Shown here: positions 1,459-30,129 of the stretch, piece after piece | How positions within the stretch are numbered: the first letter of the stretch is position 1 | How the letters are laid out: the number at the start of each line of letters is the position of its first letter | Source: a virus | Taxonomy: Duplodnaviria > Heunggongvirae > Uroviricota > Caudoviricetes | Length of the DNA: 43,607 nucleotides | Virus record (IMG/VR): IMGVR_UViG_2541047966_000006 | Span: 1-43,607 of that record | Reading direction: 5' to 3' (one strand) | The notes under the pieces: model-generated | The model's database searches: none | Told to the model about the DNA's origin: nothing | Seen by the model: the letters and a program-made list of their open reading frames with translations, nothing else | Translations under genes and position numbers: made by a program

Positions 1459-2619
1459 TTACCTCACATTTAAGTAAACCACGTTCTCCTCTTGTGCCGT
1501 ATTTGTGCCATTGCGACTTATAATCGCATCGATTTTGCTCGCGTGCTCGGTGAGATGCCCGGCTGAAAGGTGAGCGTATCTTTGAACCATTTCGAGAGTT
1601 TCCCATCCTCCCATCTCTTTAAGTGCAAGAAGAGAGACACCGGACTGAACCAGCCAGCTTGCCCAAGTATGCCTCAAGTCATGGAATCGGAAGTTGCTAA
1701 TGCCTGCCCGCTTTAACGCTCCCTTCCATGCCTTGTTGCTGTCGGTTCTCATCTTCCTTACCGCTGCTGTTTTTGTTCCGTCGCTTCGGTAGGCAGGTTT
1801 GGTGTGGACAAATACCCATCTCTTATGGAGACCCTGCTGTTTTCTTAATATCTGGCATGCGGTTTCGTTAAGAGGAACTCCGATCGCATTGCCAGCTTTT
1901 GTTTCATCAGGGTGCATCCATGCCATTTTCTTATCCAGATCGACCTGTGACCACTCAAGGTCTGTAACGTTGGAGCGGCGAAGGCCTGTCGTGATTGCAA
2001 ACATGACAACAGGGAAGAAATGAGGAGCTATTTCTGCAAACAGGCGCTTTGATTCTTCTTCTGTAAGCCATCTAATGCGTCCATTCTTAACGCGTGGTGT
2101 TGATATTTTTGGCGCCCTGTCAATCCATCCCCATTCAACAGCCATATTGAGAATGGCGCGAAGTATTGCCAGATGCCTCGTCTTCGTTCCTTTGCTTGCC
2201 AGCTTTGGTTTATACTCCGGCACTGGCTTGCCAAGCCGCAAACACCTGTCCCGGCTCATCTCCCAGTTCAGGCGATGGCGGCGGTTTTCCATCCCGTCTA
2301 CCGCCTCCATTATTTTTTCTGTTGTTATGTCAGAGAGAATGGTTTCTCTGAAGTGCAACATCCAGAACGATATAATGCTCTTGTCATCATCAATGGACTT
2401 CTTATCCGATTTCTCACGCAGCCACCGTATGCAGGCTTCCTTGAATAGCTTTTTCGGCGATTCCCCGAGATTTTTTACTCTCCACGCTTCTGCTTTCAGA
2501 CGATCGTGAAGTTCTTGCGCTTGCCTTTTGTCCGATGTTTCAAGAGAGCGTCTAACTCTTGATCCATCTGGCGCGACGAAATCGCAGTGCCACGTGCCAC
2601 CGCGTAGTTTGATTGACAT
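1459..2619 (-). CDS. int: tyrosine integrase, P22 Int-like
   Basis: 386-aa ORF adjacent to tRNA; strong similarity to P22 Int as recalled; C-terminal HDLRHTWASWLVQ...VQRYAHL catalytic motifs; SD CAGGAGG upstream of ATG. Confidence 0.9.
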   Translation of the reverse strand: MSIKLRGGTWHCDFVAPDGSRVRRSLETSDKRQAQELHDRLKAEAWRVKNLGESPKKLFKEACIRWLREKSDKKSIDDDKSIISFWMLHFRETILSDITTEKIMEAVDGMENRRHRLNWEMSRDRCLRLGKPVPEYKPKLASKGTKTRHLAILRAILNMAVEWGWIDRAPKISTPRVKNGRIRWLTEEESKRLFAEIAPHFFPVVMFAITTGLRRSNVTDLEWSQVDLDKKMAWMHPDETKAGNAIGVPLNETACQILRKQQGLHKRWVFVHTKPAYRSDGTKTAAVRKMRTDSNKAWKGALKRAGISNFRFHDLRHTWASWLVQSGVSLLALKEMGGWETLEMVQRYAHLSAGHLTEHASKIDAIISRNGTNTAQEENVVYLNVR

Positions 2620-9201: not shown

Positions 9202-10560
<1,359 letters not shown>

Positions 10561-11139: not shown

Positions 11140-12031
11140 CATATCTAATCTAGCCGAAGCCAGAGAGGCCAGAAGGCTACAACAACCGCATCAAAGCAGC
11201 GGTAAGGGGTATGCCTTGCTGCACCGTAAAATTATGGATGTGCCGTTTTACAAGGACGCAGAAGCAGCGCATCTGTGGGTTCACTTAATCCTCAAAGCAA
11301 AGCATACGCCTGAGTATGTAATGACTGACGCAGGAGAAATTCTGGTAGGCAGAGGGAAGCTACTTGGCGGTAGAAACTCTCTGGCGTTTGAAACAGGACT
11401 CAAACCAGATCGCGTTCAGTACCTGCTTAGAAAGTTCAAAAAACTCGGCATGATTGACTGGGTTTCACACGGTAAATTCTCAGTTTTCTCGGTAGAGAAA
11501 TATGACGATTATCAGTCAAATTTTGTACCAGCAGATTACCAGCAAATTACCACCTCAAAGCCAGCAATACCAATGCCTGCAAGCAATACTGTACCAGCAG
11601 ATTACCAGCAAATTACCACAGATAAAGAATATAATAATATTATCTCTAATACTGACGTATTAGAGAGTACCGCAGCAGACAAAAAGTCTGACAAGAAAAA
11701 ACCTTCCGTCAGCTGTCAGGATGTTGTCGATGCTTACCACGAAATCCTTCCTGAAGCGCCAAGAATCCGCGCACTGAATGACAAGCGTAAAAACCAGATC
11801 CGAACGTTCTGGCGCAAAGCCGGAGTGATAACCCGCCAGCTTGACGGGCATGGGTTCACGATGCAGGACTGGAGAAATTATTTGAGCTACGTAGGCGAAA
11901 ATTGCCGATGGATGTTCGAAGAGCGTCCAAACCATCAACGCGGAACCGTCTGGCACAAAAAGGGATTTGATTTCCTGCTTAACGATAATACCTACCTGAA
12001 AGTTCGTGAGGGTGAACACGATGACCGATAA
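11132..12031 (+). CDS. replication initiation protein (O-like) containing origin iterons
   Basis: 299-aa ORF directly upstream of helicase gene; internal tandem repeats at DNA and protein level ([10 protein letters not shown] x2); helicase-loader position. Confidence 0.65.
11524..11618 (+). repeat. putative origin iterons inside the initiator gene
   Basis: Two 29-bp direct repeats GTACCAGCAGATTACCAGCAAATTACCAC (11524..11552, 11590..11618), each with internal ATTACCA sub-repeats. Confidence 0.5.
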
Positions 12032-13457
12032 TTTTTATGCGCCGCCCCATAGCATCGAGGCAGAGCAGGCGGTGATTGGTGGATTGCTTCTGGATGATGA
12101 CAGCAGTGAGCGCGTCCGGAAAGTCCTGGCGATGCTGAAGCCTGATTCATTTTACAGCCGACCACACAAAATCATTTTCGAAGAAATAACCAGAATGCAC
12201 CGTGAGCAAAAGCCAGTAGATGGCCTGACGCTTTTCGATGAACTGGAGCGTAAATCGTTAACGGTGTCTGTTGGCGGTTTTGCTTATATCGCTGAGATCG
12301 CAAAGAACACGCCAAGCGCAGCAAACATCGTTGCCTATGCAATGCAGGTTCGTGAAACCGCAATGGAACGCTACGCCATCAACCGCATGACTGAAGCGAC
12401 GGAATTGCTCTATTCCCGCAACGGAATGACTGCAACGCAGAAGTACGAAGCTATTCAGTCGATTTTCACGCAACTGACAGACCATGCAAAAACCGGATCG
12501 CGTCGCGGCCTTCGCTCATTTGGTGAGGTCATGGAAGACTGGGTTAGCGACCTTGAGAAGCGATTTGACCCGTCAGGCGAACAACGAGGAATGAGCACAG
12601 GGATCCCATCGCTGGACAGGATGCTGTCACCGAAAGGCCTGGTGAAAGGCTCTCTGTTTGTCATTGGCGCTCGCCCTAAGATGGGGAAAACGACGCTATA
12701 CAGCCAGATGGCAATCAACTGCGCAGTGCATGAGAAAAAGCCCGCTCTGATGTTCAGCCTTGAAATGCCCGGTGACCAGATACTGGAAAAACTGGTAGGA
12801 CAGAAGTCAGGTGTTAACCCGAATATTTTTTACCTTCCGGCGACAAATGACGCTGATGACGGCTATCAGGGTGATTACGATGGTGACTTCAACAGGGCGA
12901 TCGAAACAGCCAATCGCTTGAGTGAAATCGACCTGCTTTACATCGACGACACGCCGGGATTATCTCTGTCTCAAATCGTCAGCGAAAGCCGTCGAATCAA
13001 GCGAGAAAAAGGATGTGTTGGCATGATTCTGGTCGATTACCTGACACTAATGACCGCTGAAAAGGCCGATCGCAACGACCTTGCTTACGGCATGATCACC
13101 AAAGGACTGAAGAACCTTGCCAAAGAGCTTGATTGCGTTGTTGTGCTTCTGACACAGCTTAACCGCGCACTGGAAAGCCGAACCAATAAACGCCCATTGC
13201 CAAGTGACTCACGAGATACAGGGCAGATTGAACAGGATTGCGATTATTGGGTGGGGATCCATCGTGAAGGTGCTTTTGATGACAGTGTTCCACCTGGTGA
13301 AACCGAACTAATCCTTCGCCTCAATCGTCATGGCAATACCGGCACGGTGTATTGCATTCAGGCAAATGGCGCTATTTATGACACAGACCAACAGTCTGCT
13401 GAAATGCGCCGCCGTGAACGCGAGGAACCGCAGTCCAAGAAGAAAGGAGGATTCTGA
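12021..13457 (+). CDS. DnaB-family replicative helicase (P22 gene 12-like)
   Basis: Walker A GARPKMGKT, DnaB N-terminal domain IEAEQAVIGGLL; ATG at 12021 after GAGGGTGAA; the ORF-track start at 12006 is GTG. Confidence 0.85.
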   Translation: MTDNFYAPPHSIEAEQAVIGGLLLDDDSSERVRKVLAMLKPDSFYSRPHKIIFEEITRMHREQKPVDGLTLFDELERKSLTVSVGGFAYIAEIAKNTPSAANIVAYAMQVRETAMERYAINRMTEATELLYSRNGMTATQKYEAIQSIFTQLTDHAKTGSRRGLRSFGEVMEDWVSDLEKRFDPSGEQRGMSTGIPSLDRMLSPKGLVKGSLFVIGARPKMGKTTLYSQMAINCAVHEKKPALMFSLEMPGDQILEKLVGQKSGVNPNIFYLPATNDADDGYQGDYDGDFNRAIETANRLSEIDLLYIDDTPGLSLSQIVSESRRIKREKGCVGMILVDYLTLMTAEKADRNDLAYGMITKGLKNLAKELDCVVVLLTQLNRALESRTNKRPLPSDSRDTGQIEQDCDYWVGIHREGAFDDSVPPGETELILRLNRHGNTGTVYCIQANGAIYDTDQQSAEMRRREREEPQSKKKGGF

Positions 13458-13537
13458 TGACCATCTACATCACTGAGCTAATAACAGGCCTGCTGGTAAT
13501 CGCAGGCCTTTTTATTTGGGGGAGAGTAAATCGTGGC
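13457..13537 (+). CDS. hydrophobic micropeptide (26 aa), putative
   Basis: MTIYITELITGLLVIAGLFIWGRVNRG with strong SD AAAGGAGG 6 nt upstream; overlaps helicase stop (TGATG). Confidence 0.35.
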
Positions 13538-14824: not shown

Positions 14825-15228
14825 CAATGCTTTTAATTCAACCTGGATTTGGACTTAGCATCAAAAAAGGCCACATGTTTGGCGAGAAAGAGTCACAACG
14901 AAAAATGGTGTCTATCCGGTTGCCATTTATCAGTATTTATTGGCTAAACAGGGAGGCAACAAATTATTGGTATACATGCGCCAGAGCAGCATTTAACGAC
15001 CCTGACTGGTTTGTGAAAAACCACCACGCAGTTCGTCAGGCAAAGAGAAAGGCCAACATGACATACATGAAGGCGTATCAAAAAGCATGGAAAGAACACC
15101 GCGATCGATACCAACAAGACATGGAAAAGCTTGAATCAGAAAACATGGAATTAAGACGAAAGCTTGGTGAAGCAAAACGAGACATTGATGCTTACAAGCG
15201 ACTTTTTAATGGTGAAAGCCATGCTTAG
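14821..15228 (+). CDS. hypothetical nin-region protein with C-terminal coiled coil
   Basis: 135-aa ORF from ATG 14821 (ATGA overlap with preceding gene). Confidence 0.45.
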
Positions 15229-15397
15229 CCCATCCCAATCCCTTCAATACCAGAAAGAAAGCGTCGAGCGGGCTTTAACGTGCGCTAACTGCGGCCAGAA
15301 GCTGCATGTGCTGGAAGTTCACGTGTGTGAGCACTGCTGCGCAGAACTGATGAGCGATCCGAATAGCTCAATGTACGAGGAAGAAGACGATGAATGA
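15221..15397 (+). CDS. ninF: NinF
   Basis: C-terminal ESVERALTCANCGQKLHVLEVHVCEHCCAELMSDPNSSM.EEEDD matches lambda NinF; ATG 15221 overlaps upstream stop. Confidence 0.7.
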   Translation: MLSPSQSLQYQKESVERALTCANCGQKLHVLEVHVCEHCCAELMSDPNSSMYEEEDDE

Positions 15398-16112
15398 GTT
15401 AATAAATGGCAATGCCATCAAAATGACAAGCATTGAAATCGCTGAGTTGGTGGGAAGTCGTCCAGATAACGTAAAAATATCAATAGAGCGCCTTGCTAAA
15501 TCTGGAGTTATTCAACTTCCTGCATTGCAGGTTTTCGAAAAAATCAATAACTTAGGACTGCGCCGTAGTGTCGAGGCTTACGTCTTCGAAGGCGAACAAG
15601 GTAAGCGCGACAGCATTATTGTCGTTGCCCAGTTGTCGCCGGAATTCACCGCTCGTCTTGTTGACCGTTGGCGAGAGCTTGAAGAAGCTGCGGTTAATAT
15701 CCCCAAAACGCTACCAGAAGCGTTGCGCCTTGCTGCTGATCTTGCTGAGCAGAAAATGCAACTGGAAAACCAGCTCGCAATTGCCGCACCTAAAGTTGAG
15801 TTTGCCGATCGCGTTGGCGAGGCCAGTGGAATTTTGATTGGAAACTTTGCAAAGGTTGTTGGAATTGGTCCAAACAAACTGTTTGCGTGGATGCGCGATC
15901 ACAAAATCCTTATTGCTTCAGGTTCCCGGCGCAATGTGCCAATGCAGGAATATATGGATCGCGGCTATTTCACAGTGAAAGAAACAGCAGTCAATACAAA
16001 TCACGGAATACAGATATCGTTCACCACAAAAATCACCGGGCGTGGTCAACAGTGGCTGACCAGAAAGCTGCTCGATAACGGAATGCTGAAAGTAACAGGG
16101 GAGGCTGCTTAA
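15390..16112 (+). CDS. Rha-N / KilA-C (ANT-like) two-domain regulatory protein
   Basis: 240-aa ORF inserted between ninF and the DUF1364/rusA genes; N-terminal Rha-like HTH region and C-terminal antirepressor-like region (domain calls from pattern recollection). Confidence 0.6.
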   Translation: MNELINGNAIKMTSIEIAELVGSRPDNVKISIERLAKSGVIQLPALQVFEKINNLGLRRSVEAYVFEGEQGKRDSIIVVAQLSPEFTARLVDRWRELEEAAVNIPKTLPEALRLAADLAEQKMQLENQLAIAAPKVEFADRVGEASGILIGNFAKVVGIGPNKLFAWMRDHKILIASGSRRNVPMQEYMDRGYFTVKETAVNTNHGIQISFTTKITGRGQQWLTRKLLDNGMLKVTGEAA

Positions 16113-16402
16113 TGGCTAACCTACGCAAAGAAGCTCGCGGCAGAGAATGCCAGGTACGTATTTACGGCATATGCAATGGCAATCCTGAAACTACAGTTCT
16201 GGCACATTACCGGATGGCTGGAATTTGCGGAACTGGAATGAAGCCTGATGACCTGATCGGCGCATGGGCTTGTAGCGCGTGTCACGATGAAATCGACCGA
16301 CGCACCCATAATCTCGACAACAAAGACGCCAGACTTTACCACCTCGAAGGCGTGATCAGGACGCAGGCGATACTGCTGAAGGAGGGGAAGATTAAGCCAT
16401 GA
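16112..16402 (+). CDS. DUF1364-like nin-region protein
   Basis: 96-aa ORF with conserved Cys/His (C..VR.YG.C...C.AC.HDE) immediately upstream of rusA. Confidence 0.55.
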   Translation: MANLRKEARGRECQVRIYGICNGNPETTVLAHYRMAGICGTGMKPDDLIGAWACSACHDEIDRRTHNLDNKDARLYHLEGVIRTQAILLKEGKIKP

Positions 16403-16761
16403 ACGAATATCAGTTTGTGCTTCCTTACCCGCCGTCGGTGAATACCTACTGGCGAAGACGGGGAAGCCAATACTACATCAGCGATAAAGGCCAGAAATAC
16501 CGAAAAGACGTTCAGCAAATCATCCGCCAACTCAAGTTAGACATTTTCACCAAATCACGACTCCGCATCAAAGTCATCGCAGACGTTCCAGACTCCCGCC
16601 GCCGCGACCTCGATAACATCCTGAAGGGCTTACTCGACTCCCTTATCCACGCCGGGTTTGCGGAAGATGACGAGCAATTCGATGACATTCGCGTAATTCG
16701 TGGCGTGAAAGTACCAGGCGGAAGGCTTGGAATAAAAATCACCGAACTGGAGAACGCATGA
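16399..16761 (+). CDS. rusA: Holliday junction resolvase RusA
   Basis: 120-aa ORF with RusA-like sequence (PPSVNTYW...DLDNILKGLLD) in the nin region. Confidence 0.85.
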   Translation: MNEYQFVLPYPPSVNTYWRRRGSQYYISDKGQKYRKDVQQIIRQLKLDIFTKSRLRIKVIADVPDSRRRDLDNILKGLLDSLIHAGFAEDDEQFDDIRVIRGVKVPGGRLGIKITELENA

Positions 16762-19606: not shown

Positions 19607-19636
19607 TTTTTTTGCAAATCACAAAGTCAATTTAAT

Positions 19637-19662
19637 GAGCCTCGCGATGCGGGGCTTTTTTA
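19637..19662 (+). terminator. putative rho-independent terminator after lysis cassette
   Basis: GAGCCTCGC-GAT-GCGGGGCTT imperfect stem followed by TTTTTTAT. Confidence 0.45.
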
Positions 19663-19808
19663 TGTCCGCAGTAAACGCGCTTCACACGCGCGACTTATGA
19701 ACACAGAACCTTTCAGGATGACCCTTGAGGATGCCGGTTTGGTGATCGGTGCCTTTCTGTGGGCCGGAATCCTGTGTGACAAGGTTCATCACTAAAAGGT
19801 GAACACTG

Positions 19809-20351
19809 ATGAATTATCCAACTATCGTTAACGGCATCGATTTCCGAGATCTGATTTTTGTGGCAAACAACGATCCGGTTACAGATTCTTTTATGGTGGC
19901 AAAAGCATTTGGAAAGCTGCCGAAGAACGTAGTTCGTGACATTGAACGAACCATAGAAGCTTGCCCTCCTGAGTTTGATACAAAGCTCAACTTTGAGCTT
20001 TGCTATAAAAACAATGAGTTACAGAATGGTAAGCCGCAAAAATTCTACCGTCTCCGCAAGGATGGGTTGATGCTTTTGGTTATGTCCTACACCAAAAAAG
20101 AAGCAATGCGTATCAAAATTGCTTACATCAACGCATTCAACTGGATGTACGCCATGCTTCAGGTTGGTCATCGTCAATTTGAAGAAGAGCGAAACGCCGT
20201 AATGCTGGAGTACATGAAAGAAAAGGATGTCGCCAGCATGTCTGGCCGTCTGCTCAATCGCTGGGGAAAAATTAAGAAGCCTCAGCTAATGGCGAGAATT
20301 GAACGCCTTGAACAGCACGGGCAAACCGTAATCCCCGGACTCACTAATTAA
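19809..20351 (+). CDS. rha: Rha-family phage regulatory protein
   Basis: 180-aa ORF with Rha-like N-terminus (MVAKAFGK...NVVRDIE); position between lysis genes and terminase as in P22. Confidence 0.7.
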   Translation: MNYPTIVNGIDFRDLIFVANNDPVTDSFMVAKAFGKLPKNVVRDIERTIEACPPEFDTKLNFELCYKNNELQNGKPQKFYRLRKDGLMLLVMSYTKKEAMRIKIAYINAFNWMYAMLQVGHRQFEEERNAVMLEYMKEKDVASMSGRLLNRWGKIKKPQLMARIERLEQHGQTVIPGLTN

Positions 20352-20579
20352 CGGCAGTACCGCGAAACAACCCAAGCCAGAAAGTGGGGGAAATAACACT
20401 GGCAGCCACTGAAAGATGAACCCCCTGCCTTATGGCAAAAAAGATTCTTTGTGGTGGCGGACTGATGGAAAGACATCGGTTATTGCAGAGACCATTCAAT
20501 GAGTGGTCTCGACAATGGCTTATACCCTGCACGGGATAACTTAACTGATATCCCTTTTAACGGATAAACGGAGCCAACA

Positions 20580-29583: not shown

Positions 29584-30129
29584 ATGTTGAGTGAAAACGC
29601 AAAAGATATTCCTGGATATGAAGGTTTATATGCCGTAACAGAGGATGGGCGAGTATATTCTCACTCACGTGTTGTTAAGGCTGCGCATGGCAGCACGCAA
29701 CTCAGAAAGGGTCGGTGGCTAAAACAACACGAGAATAATAAAGGTTATCTATATTTGCCACTTAGTGTTGATGGAGTTAAAGTAAAATGGCTTGTGCATA
29801 GGCTTGTCGCTCTTGCTTTCGTCCCCAATCCAGAAGGCAAGCCGTTCATAAATCACATAGATAACAACCGAAAAAATAATAATGCTTCTAATTTAGAGTG
29901 GTGTACTCAAAAGGAGAATATGAAGCATTGCTCATCTCAAGGCAGGGTGAAGTTTCCGGCTTTAAAAGGAGAAAATAATCCAATTTCAAAGCTCTCATAT
30001 GAGCAAGTAATAGAAATAAAGAAATCAAAGGGAGTTAATCAAAGAGAGCTTGCTAAAAAATACTGTGTCAGTCAGACGGTGATTCACAATATCCAGTCTG
30101 GTAAATCGTGGAGGCATGTTAATGGCTGA
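29584..30129 (+). CDS. free-standing HNH homing endonuclease (NUMOD4/HNH_3-like with C-terminal HTH)
   Basis: [16 protein letters not shown] and [16 protein letters not shown] motifs; AT-rich; inserted between gp10 and gp26; SD AAAGGAG. Confidence 0.75.

Follow-up and report, generated by a model that had tools for sequence, protein, structure and literature searches.

The best described counterpart of the gene considered here is roi of phage HK022, reportedly named in 1996 by Clerget and Boccard. HK022 Roi is said to be a helix-turn-helix DNA-binding protein whose site lies inside roi itself, closely linked to a site for integration host factor (IHF), with IHF stabilizing the binding. Wild-type Roi reportedly stops lytic growth in IHF-deficient hosts, a block that single amino acid changes are said to relieve, and the C-terminal half of the protein reportedly resembles Ant1 and KilA of phage P1. 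The data of that work are said to comprise DNA binding and the IHF-linked growth phenotype, with nothing on repressor binding. Here we examine the open reading frame (ORF) at 15390..16112 of IMG/VR virus record IMGVR_UViG_2541047966_000006, a P22-like prophage analyzed over a stretch of 43,607 nucleotides (the window). We have next to no doubt that this ORF is the lambdoid-phage gene roi, in its normal slot in the nin region, and we think the reading as a whole, in which it encodes an accessory DNA-binding regulator that works with IHF, quite probable.

Comparison with HK022 bears out this identity. The ORF, confirmed on the plus strand with an ATG start and a length of 240 residues, specifies a protein that matches HK022 Roi over its full length at 219 of 241 residues (91%; E=1e-161), the two lengths agreeing to within one residue. 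All 22 amino acid differences fall within residues 22-63, and from residue 64 to residue 240 the two proteins agree throughout. A search of PHROG profiles assigned the whole protein to phrog_63, "anti-repressor Ant" (7e-97). At least 80% of the gene was found in 214 of 50,697 phage DNA records, in which it is named roi, "DNA-binding protein Roi," or "anti-repressor," and roi was present in 1,046 of 5,426 complete Escherichia coli genomes, 975 of which hold 80% or more of it. The copy in E. coli DLL7555 (WP_021514115.1) is 100% identical in nucleotide sequence and has the gene order of the window, a comparison in which only roi and the common gene order are claimed as matching, there being indels elsewhere in that prophage. 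The gene is also annotated in HK97 (gp65), HK620, H-19B/933W, and most Shiga toxin (Stx) phages, and full-length homologues that are 49-55% identical occur in Vibrio, Photobacterium, and Citrobacter, all of them combining PF09669 with PF03374. The 1996 study of Clerget and Boccard (J Bacteriol 178:4077) is cited for Roi in PMC3430580 and PMC4587872; our literature searches turned up no later functional study of Roi.

A few database homologues are longer than Roi, namely P0016, P0017 (304 residues), and P0236 (331 residues). Two of these have an N-terminal extension that matches PF25212, and one joins PF07102 (YbcO) to the Rha and KilAC domains. They may be artefacts of gene calling or genuine fusions to adjacent nin genes.

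The element itself is a P22-like prophage at the proA/tRNA-Thr site, with a P22-type portal, scaffold, and coat, together with ejection proteins and a tailspike. Its roi lies in the nin region between P and Q, in the order of HK022, HK97, and HK620: the window runs from a DnaB-like P (12006..13457) through ninB, ninE, an ORF of phrog_1511, ninF, roi, DUF1364, rusA, and ninH to Q, and HK022 has ninE, ninF, roi, DUF1364, rusA, ninH, and Q. HK022 roi resembles the window gene in length, in slot (after ninF and before DUF1364-rusA or ninG, upstream of Q), and in carrying an IHF consensus at gene nucleotides 153-165, whereas the phages themselves differ, HK022 being of siphovirus type and the window phage a P22-like podovirus. 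Across phages, roi is flanked on one side by ninF, or by an ant gene in some Stx phages, and on the other by DUF1364-rusA or ninG. P22, which lacks roi, has ninG directly after ninF. The first-pass annotation of this DNA regarded the gene as inserted between ninF and the DUF1364/rusA pair. The position was given correctly, and relative to lambda and P22, with their ninF-ninG junction, the word is apt; in HK022, HK97, HK620, and most Stx phages, however, this is the standard slot. Both roi and the rha gene discussed below are already known, named genes at their usual positions, and roi does not represent a novel insertion.

Within this slot, roi is translationally coupled inside the nin operon through overlapping start and stop codons (Table 1), and from ninB to Q most neighboring genes overlap by 1-8 nucleotides. 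The ORF that precedes ninF overlaps it by up to 41 nucleotides, depending on the ninF start chosen; a PHROG match hints at an alternative start at 15221. A crude consensus scan of the plus strand within the nin genes detected no sigma-70-like site, and a consensus scan placed a tR2-like terminator hairpin at 13486-13509, ahead of the nin genes. With no promoter-like site detected for roi alone, its expression would come only from read-through of PR transcription into the nin region once infection or induction has occurred, and the context fits a delayed-early operon transcribed from PR after antitermination.

The domain composition of the protein bears on what it might do from this position. 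The first-pass annotation had read the 240-residue product as a Rha-like N terminus joined to a KilA-C-type C terminus, and domain searches bear this out, with clear membership for one half and a more circuitous case for the other. PF03374, the KilAC family, matches residues 126-228 with E=9e-33 and 113.3 bits against a Pfam cutoff of 25.3. PF09669, the Rha family, scores 20.9 bits on residues 12-99 of the window allele, below the cutoff of 29.9, though positions 1-91 of the 91-position profile are covered. Yet each of the 18 close alleles examined, at 88-98% identity, reaches E<=0.01 with PF09669 (best value 2e-19), and Roi and the Rha protein of the window align to one common region of the phrog_63 profile. 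We attribute the weak score of the window allele to replacement of its recognition-helix region, where Pro takes the place of the near-invariant His25 of the RHDNV motif. Judged from these profile and allele comparisons, the N terminus of Roi is Rha-type. The strong profile matches, to the KilAC domain of Roi and to the rha gene product, are for their strength not attributable to chance. A scan of Roi against NCBIfam profiles gave no match, and nothing in the PDB matched it by sequence or by profile.

Structure prediction agrees with a modular protein. An AlphaFold2 model built from 93 sequences has a mean predicted local distance difference test score of 71, rising to about 83 in the N-terminal domain. 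It contains a strand-helix-helix-strand-strand unit, the last two strands forming a hairpin, at residues 11-67, long helices at residues 68-132, a second strand-helix-helix unit at residues 148-170, and a hairpin at residues 194-215. Structural matches of the model are weak and are mostly to winged-helix DNA-binding domains of the MerR, excisionase, and MarR/TFE types. Roi is composed of two modules, a Rha-type winged helix and a KilAC domain with a second helix-turn-helix-like unit, connected by a long helical linker.

The window allele departs from that of HK022 mainly in one place. A mosaic patch of 140 nucleotides, corresponding to residues 21-67 and to the predicted recognition helix and wing, has been replaced, with about 39% DNA divergence in the patch versus about 2% elsewhere; gene nucleotides 61-200 (window 15450-15589) account for 54 of the 65 nucleotide differences. 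Among 126 roi genes collected from phage records and an IMG/VR scan, we distinguished at least six patch types, among which helix and wing segments recombine, and a second mosaic junction is apparent in the interdomain linker at about residues 99-110. The N- and C-terminal halves of roi are also found separately, in P1-like and Klebsiella phages. A further segment of about 100 nucleotides (~15579-15686, roi nucleotides 190-297), which encodes YVFEGEQGKRDSIIVVAQLSPEFTARLVDRWRELE, recurs in phages of Hamiltonella (APSE), Pseudomonas, Ralstonia, and Klebsiella, where its DNA is 77-80% identical, and may be a hotspot of domain shuffling.

The DNA-binding reading draws on an IHF consensus inside roi, a candidate IHF site (Table 1). 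Exact matches to this consensus number 3 in the 43.6-kb window against 2.8 expected by chance; the total is not above chance, and only the position and conservation of the roi copy are informative. Of the 9 intact phage alleles compared, 8 carry the consensus at gene nucleotides 153-165, as do 5 of 6 patch types; HK022, HK97, HK620, Stx2-86, HK629, and others share this position, although the surroundings are 35-40% divergent. By extension from the HK022 orthologue, Roi of the window would bind a specific sequence within its own coding sequence beside the IHF site, IHF would act as a cofactor that stabilizes the Roi-DNA complex, and the expression or action of Roi would thereby likely be limited. 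Self-limitation is likely because Roi blocks lytic growth when IHF is absent. Roi would then be a dispensable, probably self-limiting accessory regulator of the early lytic program rather than a classical antirepressor. For the window allele, we judge this DNA-binding and IHF mechanism, argued from analogy, to be close to evenly balanced, with a slight lean in its favor.

Several points count against this mechanism. The allele type of phage 1717 has no IHF consensus, and the IHF-like 13-mer also encodes a conserved INNLG, so constraint on the protein could explain its conservation. The window allele differs from HK022 Roi in precisely the recognition helix and wing, including the change of His25 to Pro, and its DNA target may therefore differ.

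A candidate for the Roi site itself is a 6-1-6 palindrome located 10 nucleotides upstream of the IHF consensus. At the equivalent position, other patch types carry CCTCAAATTGAGG (HK620 type, with two compensatory pair changes), TCCTCAAATTGAGGA (type F), and CTGCATTGCAG (HK022 type); the HK629 type retains 5 of the 6 pairs, and the phage 1717 type has none. Further palindromes occur in roi at 15406-15418, 15871-15885, and 15968-15980. Perfect palindromes with six-nucleotide arms number 4 in the gene against about 0.6 expected from shuffles of synonymous codons (P of about 0.008, post hoc), a count of four that is reached by 3.5% of windows of the same size, and roi holds 3 of the 17 6-1-6 palindromes of the whole window. 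We considered co-variation of the palindrome with the recognition helix and rejected it as evidence, as physical linkage to the patch alone predicts it. The case for the palindrome amounts to two compensatory pair changes in about six lineages, one 5/6 case, and one loss. Given post hoc tests, few independent lineages, and linkage to the patch, we regard the palindrome at 15519-15531 as a candidate Roi operator only.

Natural losses of the gene support the view that roi is dispensable. IMG/VR record IMGVR_UViG_2778261535_000012 (L056; minus strand, from reverse-complement position 922) shows a clean natural deletion of roi that joins its codons 1-22, in frame, to codon 3 of DUF1364/YbcO and leaves the upstream ninF intact. 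In the Stx1a phage Stx1_EH2197 (L008, positions 301-435), a stop at codon 45 has made roi a pseudogene, and IS629 insertions in roi have been described in Stx2a phages (PMC4587872). It is from this deletion, this premature stop, and these insertions together that we take roi to be dispensable.

A different function is implied by the name that many databases attach to the protein. KilAC is named after phage antirepressors, annotation pipelines label Roi "anti-repressor," and its C-terminal domain is 64% identical to Ant1 of phage vB_EcoM-813R1; in some Stx phages, roi stands beside an Ant gene for which a role in enhancing lytic induction has been described (PMC3430580). Roi could on these grounds be a true antirepressor that binds and inactivates CI-type repressors, either those of its own phage, making lytic growth irreversible, or those of co-resident lambdoid prophages, which would be induced, a reading we consider quite unlikely. 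The label on KilAC proteins is a transferred annotation and not a demonstrated function for Roi, Roi is not known to bind a repressor, and the orthologue was characterized as a DNA-binding protein. Although the C-terminal domain (PF03374) of Ant1 and KilA of P1 and P7 is homologous to that of Roi, the N-terminal domains differ, and P1 Ant1, unlike Roi as far as is known, acts within the immI antirepressor system.

The prophage also already possesses a dedicated antirepressor. Its P22-type Ant, with the sar antisense RNA, is the one proper to this type of phage and belongs to a family unrelated to Roi, even though both proteins are labelled "antirepressor" and both reside in the window. Furthermore, given the place of roi in the delayed-early operon and the lack of a promoter-like site to serve it alone, its product would be made only after the resident repressor has been overcome; the crude consensus scan and the overlapping start and stop codons gave no sign of a regulatory circuit that would express it independently of the early lytic operon. 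The suggestion in the first-pass annotation that antirepressor-like proteins in this position can act in inter-prophage induction is unsupported here, in view of the dedicated Ant with its sar RNA and the lack of a promoter-like site for roi.

The KilAC domain invites another comparison, to AriS of Listeria phage phi10403S, which has the same two-domain layout as Roi. The KilAC domain of AriS and those of two homologues inhibit the SOS response when overexpressed (Azulay et al. 2022, PMC9043618), and the N-terminal domains found in this group are AntA/B, Bro-N, or pRha (PMC9043618), the pRha-KilAC variants listed there being the combination present in Roi. The KilAC domain of Roi is 33-35% identical to Listeria phage antirepressors (E=3e-10). 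Roi might accordingly be a dual regulator whose Rha domain acts on phage genes and whose KilAC domain damps SOS, probably via RecA, and so adjusts the induction of its own prophage and of co-resident ones. As an explanation of Roi, this is unlikely in our estimation, as identity to the Listeria proteins is low, the activity is known from overexpression in Listeria only, deletion of the domain left SOS transcription at native level unchanged (PMC9043618), and the IHF-dependent phenotype of Roi is left unexplained. The host of Roi, moreover, is Gram-negative. By analogy, an AriS-like function is nonetheless a reasonable alternative or additional role.

A more ambitious reading, which we treat as a long shot, is that the Roi family comprises allele-specific, self-targeting regulators with an AriS-like, SOS-damping KilAC domain, in which the alleles set induction and cross-talk between prophages. 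If that were true, the patch would both encode the recognition helix and wing and contain the candidate operator of the protein, a palindrome altered by compensatory substitutions from type to type, beside a conserved IHF site, so that the specificity of the protein and its target would be swapped between phages as a single cassette, and Roi alleles would tune the cross-talk of co-resident lambdoid and Stx prophages. The gene is carried by about one-fifth of complete E. coli genomes and by most Stx phages, and an effect on lytic commitment, SOS signaling, or cross-talk between prophages, if demonstrated, would matter for the production of Stx.

Returning to the accessory regulator that we favor, the second Rha-type protein of the prophage offers a parallel to its IHF-linked phenotype. 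The separate Rha-family gene that had been noticed downstream of the lysis genes is confirmed: its product matches PF09669 at 77 bits against a cutoff of 29.9, TIGR02681 at 84.8 bits against 45.95, and PF10549 at 90 bits. It follows the genes for holin (18389), lysozyme (18696), and Rz (19169), and P22 has the identical slot, with Rz, rha, orf80/DUF2560, orf59c, and gene 3. Overall identity to P22 Rha is 55%, the C-terminal 60 residues being nearly identical. This gene is rha, the founder of the Rha family, in the canonical P22 slot of the late operon, and a strong terminator-like hairpin at 19637-19657 precedes it. BLASTP of Roi against this Rha was not significant (E=0.05); the two are not recent paralogues, and homology of their N-terminal domains rests on profiles; PDB searches with Rha returned only noise.

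The founder Rha proteins of phi80 and P22 (Henthorn & Friedman 1995) resemble Roi in that they inhibit phage growth when the host lacks IHF, a conditional phenotype that PMC4936722 summarizes for Rha. The two proteins have the N-terminal domain family in common and differ in their C termini, ORF11CD3 in Rha versus KilAC in Roi, and in their expression, rha being in a late operon and roi in a delayed-early one. The common IHF phenotype plausibly stems from the N-terminal domain. The Rz-DUF2560 slot (19607-20579) is itself mosaic. The Rha allele of the window occurs in Sf101, CUS-3, and POCJ13, P22 has a different Rha, and ST104 and SE1 have a KilA-N domain protein; conservation is confined to the flanks and to the C-terminal ORF11CD3 part.

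In both founder proteins, the block to phage growth depends on a host condition, the loss of IHF, which raises the further idea that Roi, Rha, or both are cargo for anti-phage defense or anti-defense. Each of the two genes is an optional cassette that occupies a mosaic slot, and a hypervariable N-terminal patch such as that of Roi can reflect an arms race. The known inhibition, however, strikes the phage that carries the gene, and roi and rha lie in lytic operons and not in the positions of lysogeny-expressed morons. Searches of the PADLOC-DB profiles (E<=0.01) recovered no family for either protein, which speaks against the defense or anti-defense role proposed for Roi in the first-pass annotation, and we consider such a role very improbable.

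Table 1. Positions in the window of roi, its parts, its neighbors, and the other features discussed
Feature	Coordinates	Strand	Basis or remark
ninF, overlapping the roi start by 8 nt	15188..15397	+	PF05810; RefSeq call in DLL7555 prophage
roi coding sequence	15390..16112	+	Orthologue of HK022 Roi, 240 residues; annotated roi, same slot, in many phages
N-terminal Rha-type winged-helix domain (residues 12-99)	15423..15686	+	PF09669, alleles, and AlphaFold2
Hypervariable mosaic patch, predicted recognition helix and wing (residues 21-67)	15450..15589	+	Allele alignments
6-1-6 palindrome CCTGCATTGCAGG, candidate protein-binding dyad (hypothesis)	15519..15531		10 nt upstream of IHF consensus
IHF consensus WATCAANNNNTTR (AATCAATAACTTA) in roi	15542..15554	+	Exact match
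KilAC/ANT domain (residues 126-228), helix-turn-helix-like unit at residues 150-170 inside	15765..16073	+	PF03374
DUF1364/YbcO, ATG overlapping the roi stop (TAATG)	16112..16402	+	PF07102, 149 bits
rusA Holliday-junction resolvase	16399..16761	+	PF05866, phrog_34
Terminator-like hairpin with T-run, between Rz and rha	19637..19665	+	Consensus scan
rha (180 residues), Rha domain at residues 25-113 and ORF11CD3 domain at residues 125-176	19809..20351	+	PF09669, PF10549, TIGR02681
SocA/Panacea antitoxin-domain ORF	36604..37053		PF13274, 87 bits
sar antisense RNA	37998-38065	-	Rfam RF00262, 92 bits
P22-type Ant (P22_AR_N, P22_AR_C), canonical P22 immI module	38000..38968		Pfam

Other features of the prophage lie outside the nin region. 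A LexA-like repressor is encoded at 9603..10235. Next to the immI module, an 83-residue ORF at 37494..37745 on the minus strand has the length of Mnt. The SocA/Panacea ORF is followed after 5 nucleotides by an ORF of 140 residues (37059..37481) that has no Pfam match, and the two, spanning 36604-37481 in a low-GC region upstream of immI, may constitute a PanA-type toxin-antitoxin pair. Between the gp10-like and tail-needle genes, in a local trough of GC content (~0.41), an ORF at 29584-30129 carries NUMOD4 and HNH_3 domains and resembles a homing endonuclease. Immediately after a tRNA-Thr(CGT) gene at 1369-1444 come an exact match to the IHF consensus (1449-1461) and the integrase gene (1459..2619, minus strand); the region 1369-1461 probably represents the attL arm.

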